Origin: an uncultured Gammaproteobacteria bacterium
GTDB taxonomy: Bacteria; Patescibacteriota; Microgenomatia; UBA8517; UBA10165
NCBI GenBank assembly: GCA_964366515.1
Contig: CAYIUF010000001.1
Span: 51,388-115,387, forward strand
DNA length: 64,000 bases
Direction: 5' to 3'
Position 1 is the stretch's first letter; every line of letters starts with the position of its first letter. Both the position numbers and the translations under genes were made by a program. Under the pieces are notes generated by a model. The model was not told where the DNA came from. It did not search any database and saw only the letters and a list, made by a program, of their open reading frames with translations. Positions 2,254 to 43,372 of the stretch are shown one piece after another.

Positions 2254-3540
2254 ATGGCTAAAATCAGAGTCAGAATTGCGCCCTCGCCAACAGGGTTTGC
2301 CCATGTAGGAACTGCATATACTGCGCTTTTTAACTACGCTTTCGCAAGAAAACTTGACGGAGATATAGTTCTCCGCCTTGAAGATACAGACACAAAAAGA
2401 GAAGTAGAAGGCGCAGAAGAGGCAATTTACTTAAATCTTGACTGGCTTGGAGTTTCTTGGGATGAGGGGCCCGACAAGGGCGGCGCGTTTGGGCCATACC
2501 GTCAATCCGAGCGTCTTGACTTGTACCAAAAGAAAGCAAAAGAGCTAGTCGATAAAGGCTTGGCCTACGAAGACGAAGGCGCAGTCCGCTTTAAGAATCC
2601 CGGGGAAGACATTTCATGGAACGACCTGATCCGGGGTGAAATCACGTTCCCGGGGCAAGAAGTCCAAGATTTTGTAATCCTAAAGTCCGATGGGTTTCCA
2701 ACATTCCATTTCGCAGTTGTGGTCGACGATATTGCAATGGAAATATCCCATGTAATTCGCGGCGAAGACCATATCTCAAACACGCCAAAACATTTGGCGC
2801 TCTTTAGGGCATTTAGCGCAGCCCCGCCTGAATTTGCCCATTTCCCAACTCTTAGGAGTCAAGATAAAACCAAACTCTCAAAACGCCGCGACCCAGTAGA
2901 TTTAGGGTTATACAGAAAAGAAGGATACCTCCCCGAAGCACTCGTAAATTTCTTGTGCCTTCTTGGGTGGTCGCATCCTGAAGAAAAAGAAATATTCTCA
3001 CTTTCTGAATTCGTAGAAAACTTCACGCTTGAAAGAGTTAGAAAATCCGGGCCAGTTTTTGATGTTAAAAAACTTGACTGGATAAATGGTATGTATATTC
3101 GCCAAATGGAAGATGAAGTACTGGCTAGATTATTAAATGACCACATCACGGCAGACACATCTGTAGAATTTCTAAAAACGGCAGTTCCTTTAATCAAAGA
3201 AAGAATAAATAAACTGGAAGATGCAGAGCCTCTCCTGTCTTTTTTTTGGAACCACCCAACCATAGGTCGAGAAACCTTTATAGACGAATCCTCAGCTGGT
3301 CATATCGCAGATGCATTGGTCACTTTAAGACGTACCCCCGAGTGGAATCTTGACGAAATAAATAGTTCGCTGTCAAAAACAATTGAAGAAAAAAGCTTCA
3401 AAACGGGAAACTTTTATATGACGCTAAGACTTGCCCTTGCAGGAACAAAAATCACTCCTCCAATAAATGAGTCTATGGTAATCTTAGGTAAAGACGAGGT
3501 ATTGCATCGCCTCGAAGAGGCGCAAAAAGTGCTTCTCTAG
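2254..3540 (+). CDS. gltX: glutamyl-tRNA synthetase (short form)
   Basis: N-terminal PSPTGFAHVGTA (HIGH-type motif) and KLSKR (KMSKS motif). 428 aa. Confidence 0.9.
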   Translation: MAKIRVRIAPSPTGFAHVGTAYTALFNYAFARKLDGDIVLRLEDTDTKREVEGAEEAIYLNLDWLGVSWDEGPDKGGAFGPYRQSERLDLYQKKAKELVDKGLAYEDEGAVRFKNPGEDISWNDLIRGEITFPGQEVQDFVILKSDGFPTFHFAVVVDDIAMEISHVIRGEDHISNTPKHLALFRAFSAAPPEFAHFPTLRSQDKTKLSKRRDPVDLGLYRKEGYLPEALVNFLCLLGWSHPEEKEIFSLSEFVENFTLERVRKSGPVFDVKKLDWINGMYIRQMEDEVLARLLNDHITADTSVEFLKTAVPLIKERINKLEDAEPLLSFFWNHPTIGRETFIDESSAGHIADALVTLRRTPEWNLDEINSSLSKTIEEKSFKTGNFYMTLRLALAGTKITPPINESMVILGKDEVLHRLEEAQKVLL

Positions 3541-3543
3541 AAA

Positions 3544-4578
3544 ATGAAACCTGCCCCCACATCAGACCAAATCAGAACTAGGCTTAAGGTAAGACATCTT
3601 CAAACAAAGGCCGCCTTAGCCCAAAAACACCCGCAAGCCCAAAATTTTCTTGAAGAAGCGGGGATTGATCTAGGGCAAATCAGACAACACTCAACAAAGC
3701 TCTTGACAGCTGGCGCTCTCGGCGGCGCCCTTCTTATTCCAGGCGCAGTGCAAACCGACGAGATAAAGCCGGAACCCTTGATCAAACGTCCCGAAGCAAC
3801 AAGCCCAGCAGCCCAAGTCCAAGAAGGGACTGTTGAGCTGGATTCGTCAAATGATCATAAAATCACCCTACCAACACCCATTGCTCAAGCCCTAGAAAGC
3901 GGCGGACAAATTCAAAAAACCGGCTCAAGAGAATTTATCGTTGCAAACTTTCAAAAATCTCTGCCCCAAATTGTGAATAAATTTAACCCACCATTTTTAA
4001 CTCGAGAAGATGAAAAAATTGTTGAAAAAATAATTACAAATGGTACTAAAGTACCAACAAAAGCAACGCTGGAAGGCGAACACTTAAATACAACTTATGG
4101 ATATATTGGCGCAGAACAGCATCTAAAGAGGTTCCCGGGAGACACAATAGACCGACATTCGTCAAAAGTTGAAGGAATGGCCCCTGGGCTTGGAGGGTTT
4201 GGATACTTTACTGAAAATGGGGTCTTAACACCGGATGCAATTGAAAGAGAAAAGTACTATGTTTGTGCCCAGCTTATGTATTTGCCAGATTGGAAAGAGC
4301 GAGTAAGGTACTTGGCCAAATGGTACAAATGGAGAAAAATGATAGTTGTAAATGCCGACAATGGAAACGCTGTTGTTGCTGTAATGGGCGATGCCGGCCC
4401 CGCCGCATGGACTGGAAAACACTTTGGAGGAAGCCCAGAAGTGATGACAGAGCTCGGGGGATCAAAATACAAAAAGGGGAGAGTAATTATGATGTTCGTC
4501 GACGATCCGAATAACGAAATTCCCCTTGGGCCAATAAAGTACAATGAGTTGCCCGATAAAATAGTGCAAGCTATATAA
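3544..4578 (+). CDS. membrane-anchored protein with C-terminal RlpA-like double-psi beta-barrel (DPBB) domain
   Basis: The C-terminus (MIVVNADNGNAVVAVMGDAGPA...GSPEV) resembles the RlpA DPBB core (rVrVtNlaNGrsvvVrvnDRGPf). TM-like segment near residues 55-70. Confidence 0.5.
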   Translation: MKPAPTSDQIRTRLKVRHLQTKAALAQKHPQAQNFLEEAGIDLGQIRQHSTKLLTAGALGGALLIPGAVQTDEIKPEPLIKRPEATSPAAQVQEGTVELDSSNDHKITLPTPIAQALESGGQIQKTGSREFIVANFQKSLPQIVNKFNPPFLTREDEKIVEKIITNGTKVPTKATLEGEHLNTTYGYIGAEQHLKRFPGDTIDRHSSKVEGMAPGLGGFGYFTENGVLTPDAIEREKYYVCAQLMYLPDWKERVRYLAKWYKWRKMIVVNADNGNAVVAVMGDAGPAAWTGKHFGGSPEVMTELGGSKYKKGRVIMMFVDDPNNEIPLGPIKYNELPDKIVQAI

Positions 4579-6430: not shown

Positions 6431-6479
6431 TTGGTACTCCTCTTTCTTAAGGCTCGTGCCTCACATGACTCTTGTCTCA

Positions 6480-7247
6480 TCATGCTGCTTTGCTTCTTGT
6501 TCCACCAGCTGCATAGATCTCGTCCCAGATCCTCTGCGCTGCGTCTCTTGGGGAACCAATCTCGGCAGGTGGCTGCGTGATCGGCCTTCCGATTACGAGA
6601 ACATCTGCGCCGGCAAGCATTGCATCTGCAGGTGAGAGGACACGACTCTGGTCACCTTTGACCGCCCACAATGAACGAATTCCTGGTGTCCATCTCTCCA
6701 ACTGAGCCACTTCGGGGTCGTCCCGCAAAGTCGAAGCCTCCTTTGGAGAGCAAATGATCGCATGCCCACCAAGATCAGCAAAGGTACGAGCAAACTGGAG
6801 CACCTTGGTTGGGGCATCTACTCCGTAGATTTCAACACACTCCTCGCTAGAAAGTGACGTTAGTACCGTGACGCCCTGAACCCTGCTGGTTCCGCGATAC
6901 TGAAATGCCCTCAAAATGGACTCATTGCCAGTTGAGACATGGAGGTTGAAGTAGGCGACGTTGTACTCAGAAATCGCCTGTACTGCCAAGGCTACAGTCT
7001 CTGAAATGTCCTTGAGTTTCCAGTCGAGCATTACGTCTATGACAGCTGAGTTCATAGCCCTCAGTACTTGCGGAGTACCCTGGCCATGCAAGAGTTGAAG
7101 CCCTACCTTAAAGTAGTCCACATACCCTCGCAACTGATCTACGAGCCTGAGTGCTTCAGGAATCGTAGGCACATCCAAAGCAACAGCTATTTTTGTCAAA
7201 AAACTTTCTCCTTTGTTAATGTCCTGGAGCTTTGCGCTCTTGAGCAA
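6480..7247 (-). CDS. pyrF: orotidine 5'-phosphate decarboxylase
   Basis: IAVALDVP, DWKLKDI (DxKxxDI) and VIGRPI motifs. TTG start as called by the ORF track, so start is uncertain. GC-rich. Confidence 0.85.
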   Translation of the reverse strand: MLKSAKLQDINKGESFLTKIAVALDVPTIPEALRLVDQLRGYVDYFKVGLQLLHGQGTPQVLRAMNSAVIDVMLDWKLKDISETVALAVQAISEYNVAYFNLHVSTGNESILRAFQYRGTSRVQGVTVLTSLSSEECVEIYGVDAPTKVLQFARTFADLGGHAIICSPKEASTLRDDPEVAQLERWTPGIRSLWAVKGDQSRVLSPADAMLAGADVLVIGRPITQPPAEIGSPRDAAQRIWDEIYAAGGTRSKAA

Positions 7248-7259
7248 TCCTAATCGTGA

Positions 7260-7742
7260 GTGTATGCTCTGTCAAGTCGAACAATGACTAAAGAAAGACT
7301 AAGTCTCAAAGAAACCCAAGAAAAAGATATTATTGTCAGAAATTCAGGAATTATAGAATTCCAGTTTGTTGAAGACCCGCCGGATGGGAATTTAGCAATC
7401 GCCCAAGGAGAAAAAGATATACCCTTCCCAATAAAAAGAACATATTGGATAAATAAACTTAATAGGCCCGAGGCGGTACGCGGAAAACATGCCCACATCG
7501 AACTTGAGCAGGTAATTGTTTGCCTAAACGGATCTTTTACGTTGCATTTGGACGATGGAGCAAAAAAACAAGATATTATTATGGACAGTCCTTACAGGGG
7601 GGTGATTTTAGGAAAAATGCTTTGGCATAAGATGACAGATTTTTCCAAAGACTGTGTAATTTTAGTTCTGGCCGGAGATGTTTACAAAGAAGCAGACTAT
7701 ATCAGAAACTATGAGGATTTTCTCGCTCGACTAGCTCAGTGA
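7260..7742 (+). CDS. WxcM/FdtA-like cupin (dTDP-4-dehydro-6-deoxyglucose 3,4-ketoisomerase family)
   Basis: The RGKHAHIELEQVIVCLNGS motif resembles the FdtA/QdtA His-pair active site. About 150 aa cupin size. Confidence 0.6.
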   Translation: MYALSSRTMTKERLSLKETQEKDIIVRNSGIIEFQFVEDPPDGNLAIAQGEKDIPFPIKRTYWINKLNRPEAVRGKHAHIELEQVIVCLNGSFTLHLDDGAKKQDIIMDSPYRGVILGKMLWHKMTDFSKDCVILVLAGDVYKEADYIRNYEDFLARLAQ

Positions 7743-17198: not shown

Positions 17199-17219
17199 GA
17201 ATCCTGCTACAATAGCTTC

Positions 17220-35451: not shown

Positions 35452-36346
35452 CACAGCAATAAAACATATAAGACGCGCACCATACCAAGCACTAACAGCA
35501 ATCTTGATAATGACAATCACATTTTTTGTTGCAACGTTGATGATTGTTATTGCATACGCTTCTTCAACGACACTGAAATATTACGAAACCAAGCCCCAAC
35601 TCATTGCATATTTTAAAAGAGATTTTAAGGCCGAAGATGTCGCTTTAGTTAAGTCCAAACTTGAGGCAGACTCTCGGGTCGAAAACGTTAGGTTTGTCTC
35701 GCAAGATGAGGCCCTTGAGATATACAAACAATTAGAGGTAAACAACCCCCAGGTCACAGAGTTTGTCAGCTCAAAAATTCTCCCCCCAAGCTATGAATTT
35801 TCGGCCAAAGACTTAAATTTTACACAAGATTTGATAAATGAGATCGAAGAATTGCCTTCGATTGAGGAAGTGCGATTTACTGCAAGTCTTGGGGGAAAAG
35901 AGAACCTAAAAGAAGTAGTTTCCCGCCTAACCAGTATTTCAAAAAACATAAGAGTAGGAGGAGCAGTTACCTTAACCATCCTTTTGCTGTCATCTCTTCT
36001 TGTACTTTTAGTAATTATCGGTATGCGAATTTCAACAAGACGTGATGAAATAGAAATTCTCCAACTAATCGGAGCAACCCCAGGCTTTATAAGGGGGCCA
36101 TTTATTCTAGAAGGGGTATTTTACGCGGTAGTCGGCGCTTTGCTGGGATGGCTCCTGGCTCTGCTTACTACAGTTTATCTCTCTCCATCGCTAGTTCGCT
36201 TCTTTCAGACAGTTCCATTTCTTCCAAGAGACATCCTAGCCCTTCTTTCATTATTTGGAATAATCTTGGCAGGAGAGGTGCTTTTGGCAATAATACTTGG
36301 AACCGCAGGAAGCTTCGTCGCAATAAAACGATACCTCAAAATTTGA
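35444..36346 (+). CDS. ftsX: cell division permease FtsX
   Basis: N-terminal TM, periplasmic domain, and three C-terminal TM helices. Adjacent to ftsE. Confidence 0.9.
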   Translation: MINTAIKHIRRAPYQALTAILIMTITFFVATLMIVIAYASSTTLKYYETKPQLIAYFKRDFKAEDVALVKSKLEADSRVENVRFVSQDEALEIYKQLEVNNPQVTEFVSSKILPPSYEFSAKDLNFTQDLINEIEELPSIEEVRFTASLGGKENLKEVVSRLTSISKNIRVGGAVTLTILLLSSLLVLLVIIGMRISTRRDEIEILQLIGATPGFIRGPFILEGVFYAVVGALLGWLLALLTTVYLSPSLVRFFQTVPFLPRDILALLSLFGIILAGEVLLAIILGTAGSFVAIKRYLKI

Positions 36347-37509: not shown

Positions 37510-38379
37510 GTGTTAAAAGCACTAATAGTCTTCGTTTCTACGCTCACCTTTGTGGCATTTCCTGCATCTGTTTCCGCTTCAATGTACATCAATGAATTTG
37601 CGTCTGATACTTCTGGAAATACGGGCGACGAAGATTGGGCGGAAATTTACAATAGTGGCCCGGACACAGTAGATCTTTCTCTGTACAGATTAAGGGATAG
37701 CACTCCCACAAACAAAAAAGACCTCTCGGGAAGCCTCCCCGCCGGTGGTTTTGCGGCTTTTGATTGGACAGACCGATTGAACAAGACTGGAGATACTATA
37801 AAGTTGTTGCTAATTGCAGACGAGACCACACCCGTTGATCAAGTGGCATACGGAGACAACTCAGGGAGTGTAATCTCAGCACCAAGCGCTGGCCAATCAG
37901 GCGGGCGCCAATCGGATGGCAACTCTACGTGGGTTTTATTCTCTACTACAAGTAAGGAACACTCAAACAACTCCTCAATTCCAGCCCCCACATCTCCACC
38001 AGCTACCCCAACAACCGTAACTCCTACCCCGGCTCCAGCAACTCCTACTTCCGTACCCCCAACATCAACCCCAACATCAAAACCCACAAGCACACCTACT
38101 CCAAAACCAACAACGTCAAATGCTTCGCCAACTCCAACAACAACCAATATCAATCAAGGCCAAGAAGAGACCGTGCTCGGAATACAAAATGAAAATACTT
38201 TAACAAGCGATGGCCCAACAGAAGCAACCCCAACTCCAAAAACCGCTGGATGGAAAACTCCAGCAATTGCGGCAGTATTAATATTCCCAGGCCTAGGAAT
38301 GATTGGTTATAGCATTTATTCATATTTGAAAAAGGCCAAGGATGGTACTATTGAAGGTAGTGATTTTGAAGATTCTTAA
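37510..38379 (+). CDS. secreted lamin-tail-domain (LTD) protein with Pro/Thr-rich linker and C-terminal membrane anchor
   Basis: Signal peptide. LTD pattern YINEFASD...DWAEIYNSGPDTVDLSLYRL. About 60-residue PT-rich low-complexity tract. C-terminal PKTAG + hydrophobic helix + KKAK. Confidence 0.55.
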   Translation: MLKALIVFVSTLTFVAFPASVSASMYINEFASDTSGNTGDEDWAEIYNSGPDTVDLSLYRLRDSTPTNKKDLSGSLPAGGFAAFDWTDRLNKTGDTIKLLLIADETTPVDQVAYGDNSGSVISAPSAGQSGGRQSDGNSTWVLFSTTSKEHSNNSSIPAPTSPPATPTTVTPTPAPATPTSVPPTSTPTSKPTSTPTPKPTTSNASPTPTTTNINQGQEETVLGIQNENTLTSDGPTEATPTPKTAGWKTPAIAAVLIFPGLGMIGYSIYSYLKKAKDGTIEGSDFEDS

Positions 38380-40339: not shown

Positions 40340-40600
40340 ATGAAACATACACTAAAATATCTTTCCCACCACATGAGCCTAATTGGAATTGCCGCCTTGG
40401 GCCTATGGGGAATAGTCGGGTTTTCTTACGACCCTGCTTTCCAGTCAGCGGTAGTTTTAGCCCTAAGCGTTGCATTTGTTTGGTGGGGCATTGTCCATCA
40501 TTGGCTTCATGAAGGCATGAGGTTTCAGATTATTTTTGAATATGTAGCCGTTGCAGTTTTGGGAGCGGTTGTACTTCTCTCGATTATTTGGAGCAGGTGA
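40340..40600 (+). CDS. hypothetical small membrane protein
   Basis: 86 aa, three hydrophobic helices. Confidence 0.4.
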   Translation: MKHTLKYLSHHMSLIGIAALGLWGIVGFSYDPAFQSAVVLALSVAFVWWGIVHHWLHEGMRFQIIFEYVAVAVLGAVVLLSIIWSR

Positions 40601-41135
40601 GTTCGTGCCTGGCAAGTGGTATACTTCTTGGATGATAATTGGAACAGGCGATGTGTTTACAAGCCCTACAAAAGGCCCACTCGCGCTTGAAGGTGTCATT
40701 GACGAAATAGCCTTATTTGTCGGAGAATCTGCAGAACATTCATATAGAATCGTTATCGGGACAGATTCTCAAGCAAAAAGAACAAATGGCGAGGCTGAAA
40801 TCGACTTTGTAACGGCAGTCGTTGTCCACAGAATTGGCTACGGAGCAAGATATTTTTGGAAAAGAGAGAAACAGAAAAGAAAATACGTTTTGCGCGAAAA
40901 AATCTACACAGAAACCATAAAATCTCTTGAATTTGCAGAAAGCTTTGTTCCAAAAATTAGGGACAGAATAACCTCAGCAAAATATGACTTGGAAATCCAC
41001 ATAGACGTAGGCCCAATTGGCCCTACCCGGGACATGATCAAAGAAATTGTTGGAATGGTCCGAGGCTCGGGCTATACCCCAAAAACCAAGCCCGAATCGT
41101 ATGGCGCCTCTTCAGTCGCCGACCGCCACACCTGA
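40551..41135 (+). CDS. YkuK/DUF458-like (RNase H-like fold) protein
   Basis: RIVIGTDSQ motif characteristic of DUF458. Start uncertain. Confidence 0.45.
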   Translation: MQFWERLYFSRLFGAGEFVPGKWYTSWMIIGTGDVFTSPTKGPLALEGVIDEIALFVGESAEHSYRIVIGTDSQAKRTNGEAEIDFVTAVVVHRIGYGARYFWKREKQKRKYVLREKIYTETIKSLEFAESFVPKIRDRITSAKYDLEIHIDVGPIGPTRDMIKEIVGMVRGSGYTPKTKPESYGASSVADRHT

Positions 41136-41145
41136 ACCTTATAGG

Positions 41146-41174
41146 TTGACAAACTATCGGTTTTGTGGTACAAT
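41146..41174 (+). promoter_or_regulatory. consensus sigma70 promoter TTGACA-17-(TGG)TACAAT
   Basis: TTGACA 41146-41151, exactly 17-nt spacer, extended -10 TGGTACAAT 41166-41174. Drives the 41448 gene through a roughly 265-nt leader. Confidence 0.6.
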
Positions 41175-41447
41175 ATACCGTTCACAAATTGAGGCTATTT
41201 AGCCTCACAAAGTACCTTAATTTAGCCTTAAAGGCAGCATTTCTGGAGTATCTGGAGCGTTGCGTCTAGGTAGCCAGAGAGTTGACTTTAAGACAAGAAA
41301 AAAACATTTGAACAATCCCATAAAACATCCGATCGGATAGTTTTTGTCCACGACTGGCACCCTCAGTACCCATAAACTTTGTGAGTATTGAGAGGGAACG
41401 AAACCGTTTCGTTTCACAAGCACATTTCAGCAAGAAGGAGCACGAAA

Positions 41448-41912
41448 GTGGGAACAGTTCGCGGACAAGTCGCAATCTGCATCCCCGAGGATTTGGCAGC
41501 AATGCGCAAGTCTCTTGGGTTGCCTGACCAGCCTCCCGAGCCATCGTTTGATCTCTCGAGTTTCAACCTCGAAGCCGACAACTGGAGGACTTCGCTTCCC
41601 TTGGAAGAGGAAGACTTCGAGTCCGGCGCGGGTATGATGCATCAGGGCAAGTTGGTCGTCGCAGTCAGAAGTGGCGGCACAAGGCACAGGCACCGGATGC
41701 ACGACGATGAACTGGCATGTGTTGCCTTCATCGCCGCCCGCCGAGCCTACGCAGACACGCGTTTTGAAGATATGCATCTTTTCGATGCTATCCTTGACCG
41801 GCGAATCGAAGCTCGGTTCGGCGCGTCAGAGGAAACCAAAAAGCAGATTCGCCAGCAAATGTCGGACACCTTCGACAAGCTCGACGATCTCTGCGGCCCG
41901 CTCGGCTACTAG
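41448..41912 (+). CDS. hypothetical protein, GC-rich
   Basis: GTG start 7 nt after AAGGAG. 154 aa, no family recognised. Composition visibly GC-richer than flanks. Confidence 0.5.
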   Translation: MGTVRGQVAICIPEDLAAMRKSLGLPDQPPEPSFDLSSFNLEADNWRTSLPLEEEDFESGAGMMHQGKLVVAVRSGGTRHRHRMHDDELACVAFIAARRAYADTRFEDMHLFDAILDRRIEARFGASEETKKQIRQQMSDTFDKLDDLCGPLGY

Positions 41913-41921
41913 GAGGATTTC

Positions 41922-42104
41922 GTGACTAAAGACAGATCGCCGCCCAGAAACAAAGTGAAGCCCGAAGTGAGAAATCAGATTATCAAGGAGCTCAAAAGGG
42001 TTGCCAAGACTGACCCAAGCCCAAGAAACCGCCAGGAGGCACAAAAAAGGCTAGACGCAATTCTCTTAACTGCACCAAAAGACGAAAAGCCCCGTGAGGA
42101 CTAA
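41922..42104 (+). CDS. hypothetical small basic protein
   Basis: 60 aa, K/R/P rich. AGGAGG 6 nt upstream of GTG. Co-oriented with 41448. Confidence 0.45.
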   Translation: MTKDRSPPRNKVKPEVRNQIIKELKRVAKTDPSPRNRQEAQKRLDAILLTAPKDEKPRED

Positions 42105-42125
42105 AATCCAATACCGGGGCTTTAT
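42089..42125 (+). terminator. possible terminator hairpin GCCCCG...CGGGGC + TTTAT
   Basis: 6-bp GC stem with a 20-nt loop followed by a T-rich stretch, overlapping the stop of the small basic ORF. Confidence 0.3.
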
Positions 42126-42157
42126 AATGCTTAAAATACTTGTGGTATATTAGTAAC

Positions 42158-42697
42158 ATGTCTGAAGCAGGCGTTCATCAAGAAGCTCCAACCATTCCAA
42201 CGACAGACGATCCAAAGGAATTTTTCGACCGTTTTCGAGAAAGCAAGTTTTACAAAGACGCCTCAGATGGGTTTTATACAGGCAAGACACTAGCATCAGA
42301 TGTCACCGAAGAAGAAAAAGACCTAGCGTTCTTAGAAAGTGATATCGCAAAAATCGCGCTTATCGACTTCACTCAACAAGAATTAGGATTTCACTACAAC
42401 TATACTAACTACACTCCCGAATCGAGAAAAGCGATTGGAGAATATGTTGCAACAGTTGAAGACCAAGCGGAAATGATTCGCGAAGGAGCAACTCAGCATG
42501 AGATTGCAACTGTAGACGGGATGCGGTTTTTAAACCATGTCGCCGCAGCAAAACAGCTAGTCAAAGACGGAACTGCACCAACAGAGAAAATGGGCAGAGC
42601 CTTGGCGAGACTCATCCTGGTTGATAAAAAACTGGATACATTAAACTCAGCAAGAGAACCAGACGTAAAACGACTCGAAAGAAAACTTGGTGTGTAG
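42158..42697 (+). CDS. hypothetical protein
   Basis: 180-aa ORF. ATG 6 nt after the extended -10 TGGTATATT (42143-42151). No motif recognised. Confidence 0.5.
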   Translation: MSEAGVHQEAPTIPTTDDPKEFFDRFRESKFYKDASDGFYTGKTLASDVTEEEKDLAFLESDIAKIALIDFTQQELGFHYNYTNYTPESRKAIGEYVATVEDQAEMIREGATQHEIATVDGMRFLNHVAAAKQLVKDGTAPTEKMGRALARLILVDKKLDTLNSAREPDVKRLERKLGV

Positions 42698-43372
42698 TTA
42701 ATCCCTCTCCAATAAATCAGGTCGGGTCTTTTTAGTTCGTTCTAATGAAGCGGTTTTTTTCCAAGCCTCTATTTTTTTGTGATTTCCAGACAACAATACT
42801 TCTGGAACTTTCCAACCTCGATACTCTTCAGGCCTTGTGTACTGAGGGTATTCCAGAAGACCATCCTCAAATGACTCATGTATCGTTGCATCCTCTTTTG
42901 TTAAAACACCTGGCAGAAGCCGTACCACCGTGTCAACAACTGCCATTGCAGGAATTTCTCCTCCGGTTAATACATAATCTCCGATTGAAATCTCCTCATC
43001 AATCAAATGCTCCCTTACCCTGTGGTCAACAGTTTCATAATGCGCCGCAATAAGAATCAAATGGTCACACTTCGAAAGTGACCGTGCACTCTTCTGTGTA
43101 AAGGGTTTCCCCCCGGGGTCCAGCAAAATCGTGTGGGAGGTTGGGGATCTTAGGGCTGTTAAGGCTTTGTCGAGAGCCTCCACCATTAAGACCATTCCGG
43201 TTCCACCCCCGTATGGTTTATCATCCACGATCTGGTGCCGACCTTCGGCCCAACCTCTTAGTTGATGAATATGGATTTCTACTAATAACTTGTCCTGAGC
43301 TCGCCGAAGGATGCTCTCAGAAAATGGCCCTTCAAACATCTCCGGAAAAAGAGTTAGTATATCGATTCTCAT
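42698..43372 (-). CDS. trmD: tRNA (guanine37-N1)-methyltransferase
   Basis: SPOUT/TrmD motifs (DILTLFPEM, PYGGGTGMV, GGEIPAM). Confidence 0.95.
   Translation of the reverse strand: MRIDILTLFPEMFEGPFSESILRRAQDKLLVEIHIHQLRGWAEGRHQIVDDKPYGGGTGMVLMVEALDKALTALRSPTSHTILLDPGGKPFTQKSARSLSKCDHLILIAAHYETVDHRVREHLIDEEISIGDYVLTGGEIPAMAVVDTVVRLLPGVLTKEDATIHESFEDGLLEYPQYTRPEEYRGWKVPEVLLSGNHKKIEAWKKTASLERTKKTRPDLLERD

Follow-up and report, generated by a model that had tools for sequence, protein, structure and literature searches.

In a 64-kb window of Patescibacteria DNA (contig CAYIUF010000001.1; the window is the whole stretch that was analysed, and unlabelled positions refer to it), a small islet of genes, 41136-42697, lies between two host core genes. 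Namely, a strong promoter (41146..41174) is followed by a long untranslated leader, by two open reading frames (ORFs), ORF1 (41448..41912) and ORF2 (41922..42104), by a terminator-like hairpin (42086..42123) and by ORF3 (42158-42697), all on the + strand; promoter, leader, ORF1 and ORF2 are referred to here as the cassette. On the left the islet is bounded by a DUF458 / RNase H-like gene (40551..41135, + strand; Pfam PF04308, E = 6.7e-47) and on the right by trmD (42698..43372, - strand; Pfam PF01746, E = 7.8e-62), which is syntenic in relatives. Our main subject is the 3' part of the leader (41308..41441, + strand), a non-coding element that is conserved between two lineages and that may act in cis as a structured RNA.

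The host is a Microgenomates-type member of the Patescibacteria (Candidate Phyla Radiation, CPR) of groundwater origin, and the loci compared with the window carry the labels L001-L004, L013, L076, L078, L079, L093, L094 and L097. L094 and L001 are on contigs identical or 99% identical to the region and come from 0.1-um filtrates of Hainich groundwater, and the sole other genome bearing the cassette is that of L002/L093 (Hainich well H51, JBBTXW010000019). Metagenome, viral, phage and plasmid searches (IMG/VR, INPHARED and PLSDB included) gave no further cassette lineage, and when the metagenome collection was scanned for a degenerate ORF2 motif, the two Hainich lineages alone gave true matches. 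The DUF458 protein, for its part, has relatives in 74 Patescibacteria loci (Woesebacteria, Blackburnbacteria and similar metagenome-assembled genomes (MAGs)). In L003 (Blackburnbacteria), the stop of DUF458 directly abuts the stop of the convergent trmD with zero spacer, and in several further relatives the two genes are close together or are split by unrelated genes (rfb genes in L013). Since the two genes abut in relatives, the stretch 41136-42697, with leader, ORF1, ORF2 and ORF3, is an inserted islet. In L004, DUF458 and trmD are about 215 nt apart (6483-6697), and this spacer has no ORF but small hairpins and a promoter-like TTGCAA...TGATAATAT.

How much conservation should one expect between the two lineages? 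The DUF458 protein is 94% identical between them and its gene 74% identical at the DNA level, with a synonymous divergence (dS) of 1.77 and a ratio of nonsynonymous to synonymous divergence (dN/dS) of 0.025. In other words, synonymous sites are saturated, and unconstrained DNA should therefore be unalignable. The 3' leader element aligns with L002 7684-7852 with 106 of 130 aligned columns identical (81.5%), which is a higher nucleotide identity than that of the DUF458 gene or of ORF2 (71%); its local alignment score is 91, as against 29.5 +/- 5.5 in shuffles, and nhmmer gives E = 2.5e-5. The indels between the two copies, some of 1 nt and a 32-nt insertion, are not multiples of three, and the 3' leader is accordingly non-coding. 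Promoter, 3' leader and ORF2 are all kept in L002, so that a look at relatives, as proposed in a preliminary description of this locus, does show the cassette backbone to be conserved.

Folding the copies of the window, L001 and L002 jointly, RNAalifold arrives at four helices with 31 pairs, namely P1 (41322-41330/41335-41344), P2 (41345-41348/41356-41359), P3 (41362-41369/41385-41392) and P4 (41395-41402/41408-41415), the last being a hairpin close to the Shine-Dalgarno (SD) sequence of ORF1. Two conserved blocks are left unpaired, the 9-nt AAACUUUGU in the P3 loop (41374-41382) and AAGCACAU after P4 (41419-41426), and the model suggests that these are a possible binding surface. Covariation, which the preliminary description had named as a thing to look for, is found between the two lineages: three pairs show double compensatory changes (two in P1 and one in P3), and four more have changed on one side with pairing kept via G-U/A-U/G-C, while two P4 pairs are disturbed by an indel. 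All told, 96.7% of the pair cells are paired, compared with 33-52% (at most 52.5%) when partners are slid by 1-3 columns. What is more, the one-sided changes are wobble-compatible on the + strand only, as the other strand would show C-A mismatches, a pattern that fits an RNA better than it fits a DNA cruciform or antisense transcript. The L002 copy of the element has a minimum free energy (MFE) of -68.5 kcal/mol (z = -9.3), and its P1 is a perfect 22-nt palindrome (AAAATGTTCGATCGAACATTTT) in which the changes are symmetric. In L002, the ACUUUGU block pairs locally with ACAAA in a lineage-specific insert, where a CACCUUAAAGGUG hairpin is found as well. The window has its complementary CACAAAGU and its GCCUUAAAGGC hairpin 170 nt upstream, that is, the same parts occur in another order.

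That said, several observations weigh against taking the element for a conserved, cis-acting RNA structure. The window copy folds only moderately better than shuffles (z = -2.8). The covariation rests on a single sequence pair, and 53 of 500 column shuffles score as well (447 of 500 fall below); in addition, the consensus structure was derived from the same alignment that was used to score it. Only two independent lineages carry the cassette. Finally, no SD-sequestering helix common to both lineages was found, SD and start codon being paired in the window ensemble and unpaired in L002.

Searches for known RNAs were negative throughout. At the gathering threshold, Rfam gives two tRNAs only in the whole window; at E <= 10 it gives zero matches in 41100-41500, and at E <= 1 nothing relevant in the related loci. 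A covariance model, R1, built from the leaders of the window, L001 and L002 and run with filters off over about 760 kb of related loci (64 sources, about 731 kb, plus the ORF1-family loci), turned up no additional copy. A weak match to R1 in L013 lies within the rfbB coding sequence and was discarded as chance, and the 7 matches of a leader-motif scan of IMG/VR, all in coding sequence, were likewise ascribed to chance. 6S RNA was rejected on account of the missing RF00013 match, the disfavoured closing stem 41204-13/41376-85, the absence of the leader's 5' half from L002 and the absence of the region from L003. A terminator scan of the + strand of the leader found no intrinsic terminator and did not flag P4, which has 3 G-C pairs followed by ACAAGC (window) or UAAUAA (L002) and has no U tract; a terminator-type transcription attenuator was rejected, the leader being free of any GC-rich stem with a U tract.

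The promoter consists of TTGACA (41146-41151), a 17-nt spacer and an extended -10 box, TGgTACAAT (41166-41174), and the transcription start site (TSS) is predicted at about 41181. It scores 11/12 plus TG, is the top match in the local promoter scan and is the sole match of at least 11/12 plus TG on both strands of the 64 kb (0.11 expected per window under a Markov null); the textbook sigma-70 promoter of the preliminary description is thus present and is the best such match in the window. Including the spacer, 27 of its 29 positions are identical to L002 7415-7443, and ATCGGTTTTGTGGTAyAAT is invariant across the window, L001 and L002. The combination of a T-tract with the TGGTAYAAT form is the same as in the host's own promoters. 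No second promoter before ORF1 was found in the local promoter scan. When IMG/VR was scanned for the promoter motif, one GC-rich phage contig, L079, shared the 19-mer at a position fitting a promoter; some 3 matches are expected by chance in such a scan, and we judged L079 to be coincidental rather than a true relative. Between the window (41117-41190) and L001 (752-820) there are about 18 differences and a 5-nt indel, whereas the two are otherwise about 99.9% identical over 2.5 kb. These differences are confined to ~70 nt near the promoter, namely the -35 flank, the 5' half of the spacer, the -10 box (C/T) and the TSS region, and the alignment indicates that this is a locally hypervariable or recombined patch.

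From the end of the -10 box to the GTG of ORF1 (41448) there are 273 nt without any ATG, and the 5' untranslated region (UTR) would measure about 266 nt if the TSS is near 41181. The non-coding gap of 312 nt before ORF1 belongs to the top ~5% of gaps in a compact genome whose long ORFs are separated by a median of 21 nt, and the GC content of the leader is 0.41, with a window mean of 0.423, so that the leader is both unusually long and AT-rich in the manner of its host, as first described. Extended -10 boxes (TGnTAnnAT) stand 5-8 nt before the start in at least 9 long ORFs, a leaderless-type layout, which suggests that leaderless transcripts are widespread in this CPR genome; on the + strand such boxes, often TTTTGGTACAAT, are found at 17205, 22676, 32327, 37495, 38659, 42143, 52530, 57711 and others. 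The full leader has an MFE of -77 kcal/mol (z = -4.5), more stable than all 200 shuffles, and holds no tandem or direct repeat family. Its 5' half (41181..41307, + strand) is lineage-specific: nothing in L002 aligns with it, and the corresponding place in L002 is taken by 238 nt of GC-rich (0.58) sequence. This half comprises a TSS-proximal hairpin (41190-41207; 7 bp, 4-nt loop), CUCACAAAGU (41204-41213) and a small hairpin, GCCUUAAAGGC (41227-41237). The TSS-proximal hairpin is stable and stands about 10 nt from the predicted 5' end, and L002 has an analogous, weaker one. The two hairpins reported earlier, just after the predicted TSS and just before the SD (41395-41415), are therefore real. 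Of the long-range closure reported with them, the complement itself exists, 41204-41213/41376-41385 being with its 10 nt the longest in the leader, but it is barely exceptional (a length of 10 is attained in 3% of dinucleotide shuffles), forcing the pairing costs 10.7 kcal/mol, and its ensemble probability is 0. Moreover, the TSS-proximal hairpin and the closure had been stressed as the key features, and both fall in the 5' half, which is not conserved.

ORF1 (154 aa, + strand) encodes an acidic protein (isoelectric point (pI) 5.1) of a rare family and would be the GC-rich cargo of the cassette. Its SD, AAGGAG (41435..41440, + strand, as read from the letters), stands 7 nt before the GTG. An in-frame TTG at 41388 was rejected as the start, since it would cross the conserved, non-coding P4 and since the N-termini of homologues fit the GTG at 41448. 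The GC content of ORF1 is 0.572, the maximum among all 465-nt windows of the 64 kb (+3.9 standard deviations), and that of its third codon positions (GC3) is 0.658. In L002, the same slot is occupied by an unrelated 124-aa ORF (GC 0.536, GC3 0.60). By composition, then, ORF1 is foreign and would come from a GC-richer donor, and its slot appears to be exchangeable. The compositional shift put forward in the preliminary description holds up in a windowed profile, as do the canonical SDs of the two genes, AAGGAG and AGGAGG; of the two ORFs said to exceed 55% GC, ORF1 does so, but ORF2 stands at 0.486.

ORF1 is evidently a genuine gene. Its homologues are full-length, with 39-41% identity and E of about 1e-21 to 1e-22, and sit in or adjoin Patescibacteria DNA. 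An exhaustive search of 1.84 billion representatives returned 5 ORF1 matches only, and a word-indexed search in which the ORF1-family profile was compared with 5.8 billion proteins made no addition. ORF1, ORF2, ORF3 and the L002 slot gene have no match in Pfam, PHROGs, PADLOC, NCBIfam or PDB sequences, which agrees with the earlier statement that the cassette genes match no recognisable family, housekeeping families included. As structure searches gave no fold match for ORF1 and ORF2 either, the two appear, on their predicted models, to be true orphans with confident or plausible folds and no fold relatives.

Long non-coding regions upstream of the gene appear to recur around the ORF1 family. 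The most distant member, P0004 (L097 3518-3911 and an ENA contig), comes from a MAG annotated as Patescibacteria, at a point where synteny between strains breaks off; upstream of it is a non-coding region of 395-576 nt with a TGGTACGAT extended -10 box, and the L097 leader of 352 nt has a very stable predicted fold of -130.7 kcal/mol (z = -6.3). P0003 belongs to a GC-rich (0.5-0.6) array of at least 6 small orphan ORFs (L078 480-3250) that adjoins an AT-rich valS, and the 110-240-nt spacers of this array share repeated motifs (AAGCTGGTTTTCTTAAGGAA, and GAACC...GTTCGTGA hairpins before each SD). P0002 (L076) is found among small genes each with a repeated promoter, three of which stand behind a near-identical TTGACAAGCCTGTAGT...GATAyAAT (2440-2475, 3298-3328 and 3808-3838), and a 63-aa ORF with a CxxC...CxxC zinc ribbon precedes the ORF1 homologue there. 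The leaders of different ORF1-family loci show no mutual homology by blastn-short or nhmmer.

ORF2 (60 aa, + strand) encodes a basic protein (pI 10.3). Its SD, AGGAGG (41911-41916), overlaps the stop of ORF1, which suggests translational coupling, and the spacing between the two ORFs is 9 nt. Compared with L002 8246-8413, the protein identity is 72%, the differences fall 8/9/29 on the three codon positions, dN is 0.17 and dS is saturated; the codon-position pattern and the dN together make ORF2 a real gene under constraint. AF2 predicts a two-helix hairpin (H14-30 and H34-49; predicted local distance difference test (pLDDT) score 69) with disordered basic tails. A homologue search with ORF2 returned only itself, and the best Foldseek match, a chain of a HigA complex, is not significant (E = 5.3).

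Overlapping the 3' end of ORF2 is the hairpin 42086..42123 (+ strand; -17.4 kcal/mol, z = -3.8), the only occurrence of GCCCCG...CGGGGC in the window. The preliminary description took it for a terminator: the hairpin is indeed stable, but its loop is long, its U tract is weak and the terminator scan did not flag it. A homologous hairpin is present at L002 9484-9517 and a degenerate copy follows ORF2 in L002, so that the positions are shuffled. ORF3 (179 aa, + strand) has a host-like GC content of 0.435, and an extended -10 box, TGGTATATT (42143-42151), followed by 6 nt and the ATG, precedes it. It has only its first ~14 nt in common with L002, and matches to Pfam, PHROG, PADLOC, NCBIfam or phage were absent. 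Between 36 and 45 kb the neighbouring genes encode an M23 peptidase, LTD, TsaE, TsaB-like, CAP, DUF458, TrmD and two GT2 proteins. Elsewhere in the window, 35452-36147 (696 nt) is the longest gap lacking any ORF of 80 aa or more and has no Rfam match, and 37800-38250, inside an ORF with a lamin-tail-domain match, has a GC content of 0.49-0.52 and a GC skew of -0.36 to -0.55.

What does the comparison say about the history of the islet? In L002, DUF458 and the promoter are separated by an insertion (6502-7514, minus strand), which consists of a toxin gene of the AbiEii family (Pfam E = 1.3e-16) with a small ORF upstream of it and is flanked by a degenerate duplication of the 3' end of DUF458 (repeats 6455-6485 and 7385-7415). 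The islet is thus a mosaic, in which promoter, 3' leader and ORF2 form an old and selected backbone and only the cargo looks recently foreign. The earlier proposal of a horizontally acquired module therefore stands in so far as the islet is inserted and ORF1 is foreign; it does not extend to the cassette as a whole, which is not a recent arrival, since the promoter is of host type and promoter, 3' leader and ORF2 have been kept across saturated divergence.

Our reading of the locus is that of a cis-acting RNA leader on a conserved expression platform, and we give it about an even chance of being correct. Namely, the strong host-type promoter would transcribe a bicistronic mRNA with a 5' UTR of ~266 nt, ORF1 and the coupled ORF2, ending at the hairpin. 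Promoter and ORF2 would make up the platform together with the last ~130 nt of the UTR, whose four helices end about 20 nt ahead of the SD, and the ORF1 slot would hold exchangeable cargo, foreign to the host and derived from a donor richer in GC. In a host whose own genes are largely leaderless, the conserved RNA domain would act in cis on its own mRNA and determine how long messages with SD-dependent cargo last, how they are processed or how well they are translated, and the co-conserved ORF2 protein may be a binding partner that provides feedback control. The layout of the locus, its insertion, the foreign composition of ORF1, the conservation, the strand-specific compensatory changes and the lack of known families are observed; that the promoter is used, that the element works as RNA, and what ORF2 and ORF1 do, we infer. 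Any particular sub-mechanism is much less likely than the core reading. CPR bacteria are reported to retain RNase J, RNase III and PNPase (PMC12641178), so that protection by 5' structure and processing at long helices would at least be available mechanisms. As regards the preliminary description, cis-regulation by the leader is made plausible by its conserved, structured and strand-specific 3' part, though this belongs to no known family; its suggestion of a riboswitch or attenuator finds no support from known families, as nothing in Rfam matches at E <= 10, and the leader has no canonical terminator or antiterminator.

One could argue, first, that ORF1 and ORF2 are a toxin-antitoxin (TA) or other defence or conflict pair, with ORF1 as the variable effector, ORF2 as the conserved small neutraliser or regulator and a leader that merely tunes expression. 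This is compatible with a cis-acting leader, and we regard it as unlikely. The pair is compact and coupled and its members are of opposite charge (pI 5.1 and 10.3), the islet is variable and holds the AbiEii toxin gene in L002, the cargo is foreign, rare and exchangeable, and the two-helix hairpin of ORF2 with its basic N-terminal tail would fit a small nucleic-acid binder. On the other hand, neither PADLOC, Pfam, NCBIfam nor fold searches gave a match, the gene order and the 266-nt UTR are atypical for a type II TA, and members of the ORF1 family elsewhere occur without an ORF2 homologue. As to specific TA classes, type II was rejected for lack of any toxin or antitoxin domain in Pfam, NCBIfam and PADLOC, and type III (ToxIN-like) for lack of tandem RNA repeats in the leader and of a PADLOC match.

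Second, the conserved element may act as DNA, be it as a recombination or landing site (functionally attI-like) or, through the P1 palindrome, as an operator for ORF2. The edges of the ORF1 slot coincide with the conserved element and ORF2, P1 changes symmetrically and is perfectly palindromic in L002, the islet is a mosaic with shuffled terminator copies and with the DUF458 3' end duplicated around the AbiEii insertion in L002, and two 99%-identical strains differ almost only in 41117-41190. We nevertheless consider this rather improbable, because the four one-sided helix changes keep wobble pairing on the + strand alone, neither a recombinase nor a phage gene is found within about 5 kb of the cassette, and a palindrome at about +145 from the TSS would be odd for an operator. 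Moreover, no attC-type R''...R' pair is present: a regex for attC cores (R'' RYYYAAC ... R' GTTRRRY), run on both strands, had 0 matches in the islets of the window and of L002 and in the L078 array (shuffle mean 0.35).

The same absence of an integrase and of attC cores led us to reject an integron. The likeness in layout is still worth spelling out. In an integron platform (Pc promoter, attI, promoterless cassettes) or a cluster of attC sites lacking integrases (CALIN), as here, a fixed strong promoter and a conserved element stand before a slot of unrelated foreign small ORFs, and one ORF1 homologue is part of the L078 array, in which small GC-rich ORFs are split by repeated structured spacers. 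The cassette differs in having no integrase within about 5 kb and no attC after ORF1, and in a wobble pattern that is that of RNA and not of folded single-stranded DNA. A related idea, which we think has only a small chance of being right, is that promoter, leader and ORF2 are a dedicated CPR platform for gene capture and expression, on which GC-rich foreign ORFs have been swapped repeatedly without an integron integrase and the RNA domain is an adaptor that makes SD-dependent foreign genes expressible or controllable. Such a platform would be kin in principle to the L078 arrays of small GC-rich ORFs with repeated structured leaders beside Patescibacteria core genes.

Of similarly small probability is an independent trans-acting small RNA of about 235 nt (from about 41181 to P4), with ORF1-ORF2 expressed by read-through or after processing. 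The RNA element is better conserved than either protein gene and was kept although the downstream gene was replaced, P4 could be a processing or stop site, and the single-stranded AAACUUUGU could be a seed. Yet there is no canonical terminator after P4, conservation runs on through AAGCACAU to the SD, as it would for a UTR, ORF1 has no second promoter before it, and the covariance model found no further copy in the related loci searched. Finally, a ligand-sensing riboswitch or transcription attenuator that gates ORF1-ORF2 via alternative folds would fit a long, structured and conserved UTR with unpaired conserved blocks (AAACUUUGU and AAGCACAU), the mutual exclusion in the window of 41204-13/41376-85 and P3, and the U-rich 3' arm of P4 near the SD, but it is the most doubtful of all, given that no Rfam family is found, that the only alternative pairing is the one costing +10.7 kcal/mol, whose 5' partner is not conserved in L002, that P4 lacks a U tract and leaves the terminator scan silent, that the downstream genes give no hint of a ligand, and that a distribution over two lineages is far narrower than that of any known riboswitch class.

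Returning to the cis-acting leader, its closest functional likeness would be, by analogy, a 5' leader whose structure serves autoregulation or stabilisation, placed on a moron-like accessory module with the layout of an integron platform. Structured 5' UTR leaders act in cis, as in the autoregulatory leaders of ribosomal-protein genes and in the 5' stem-loops and SD-like stabilisers of organisms with RNase J. Like them, the cassette has a strong promoter separated from the SD by a long and conserved UTR of several helices, a hairpin about 10 nt from the predicted 5' end, and a small basic protein on the same transcript that is co-conserved with the RNA. It differs in that the leader has no sequence or covariance match to curated leaders, that ORF2 is only a putative partner, that the genes are orphans and not housekeeping genes, and that the element occurs in two lineages only. 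With phage morons and mosaic accessory modules it shares the autonomous promoter-to-terminator unit between core genes, an atypical GC content and mosaic exchange at conserved linkers, and the small genes of L076, each with its repeated promoter, are similar in this respect. Unlike morons, however, it has no prophage context, its promoter is of host type and its backbone is anciently resident. Searches for a phage signature were negative: PHROGs gave only noise at E >= 0.013, and IMG/VR scans with ORF1 and ORF2 profiles, INPHARED tblastn and blastn, and PLSDB blastn gave nothing. We therefore describe the cassette as an unclassified candidate cis-regulatory RNA with orphan genes.

CPR bacteria have tiny genomes with very little non-coding DNA, and to our knowledge almost nothing is known of RNA-based regulation, or of the uptake and expression of foreign genes, in this group. 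In such a genome, the conservation pattern described here is remarkable: across saturated silent sites, a non-coding element is better conserved than the surrounding proteins and persists where the gene downstream has been exchanged for another, and the exchangeable slot is intriguing in its own right. The orphan proteins ORF1 and ORF2 are candidates for new biology, on a case that for now is built from two lineages and their sequences. If confirmed as a functional RNA, the element would be a new, lineage-specific cis-regulatory motif and would help one to approach the expression of accessory genes in organisms whose transcripts are mostly leaderless.

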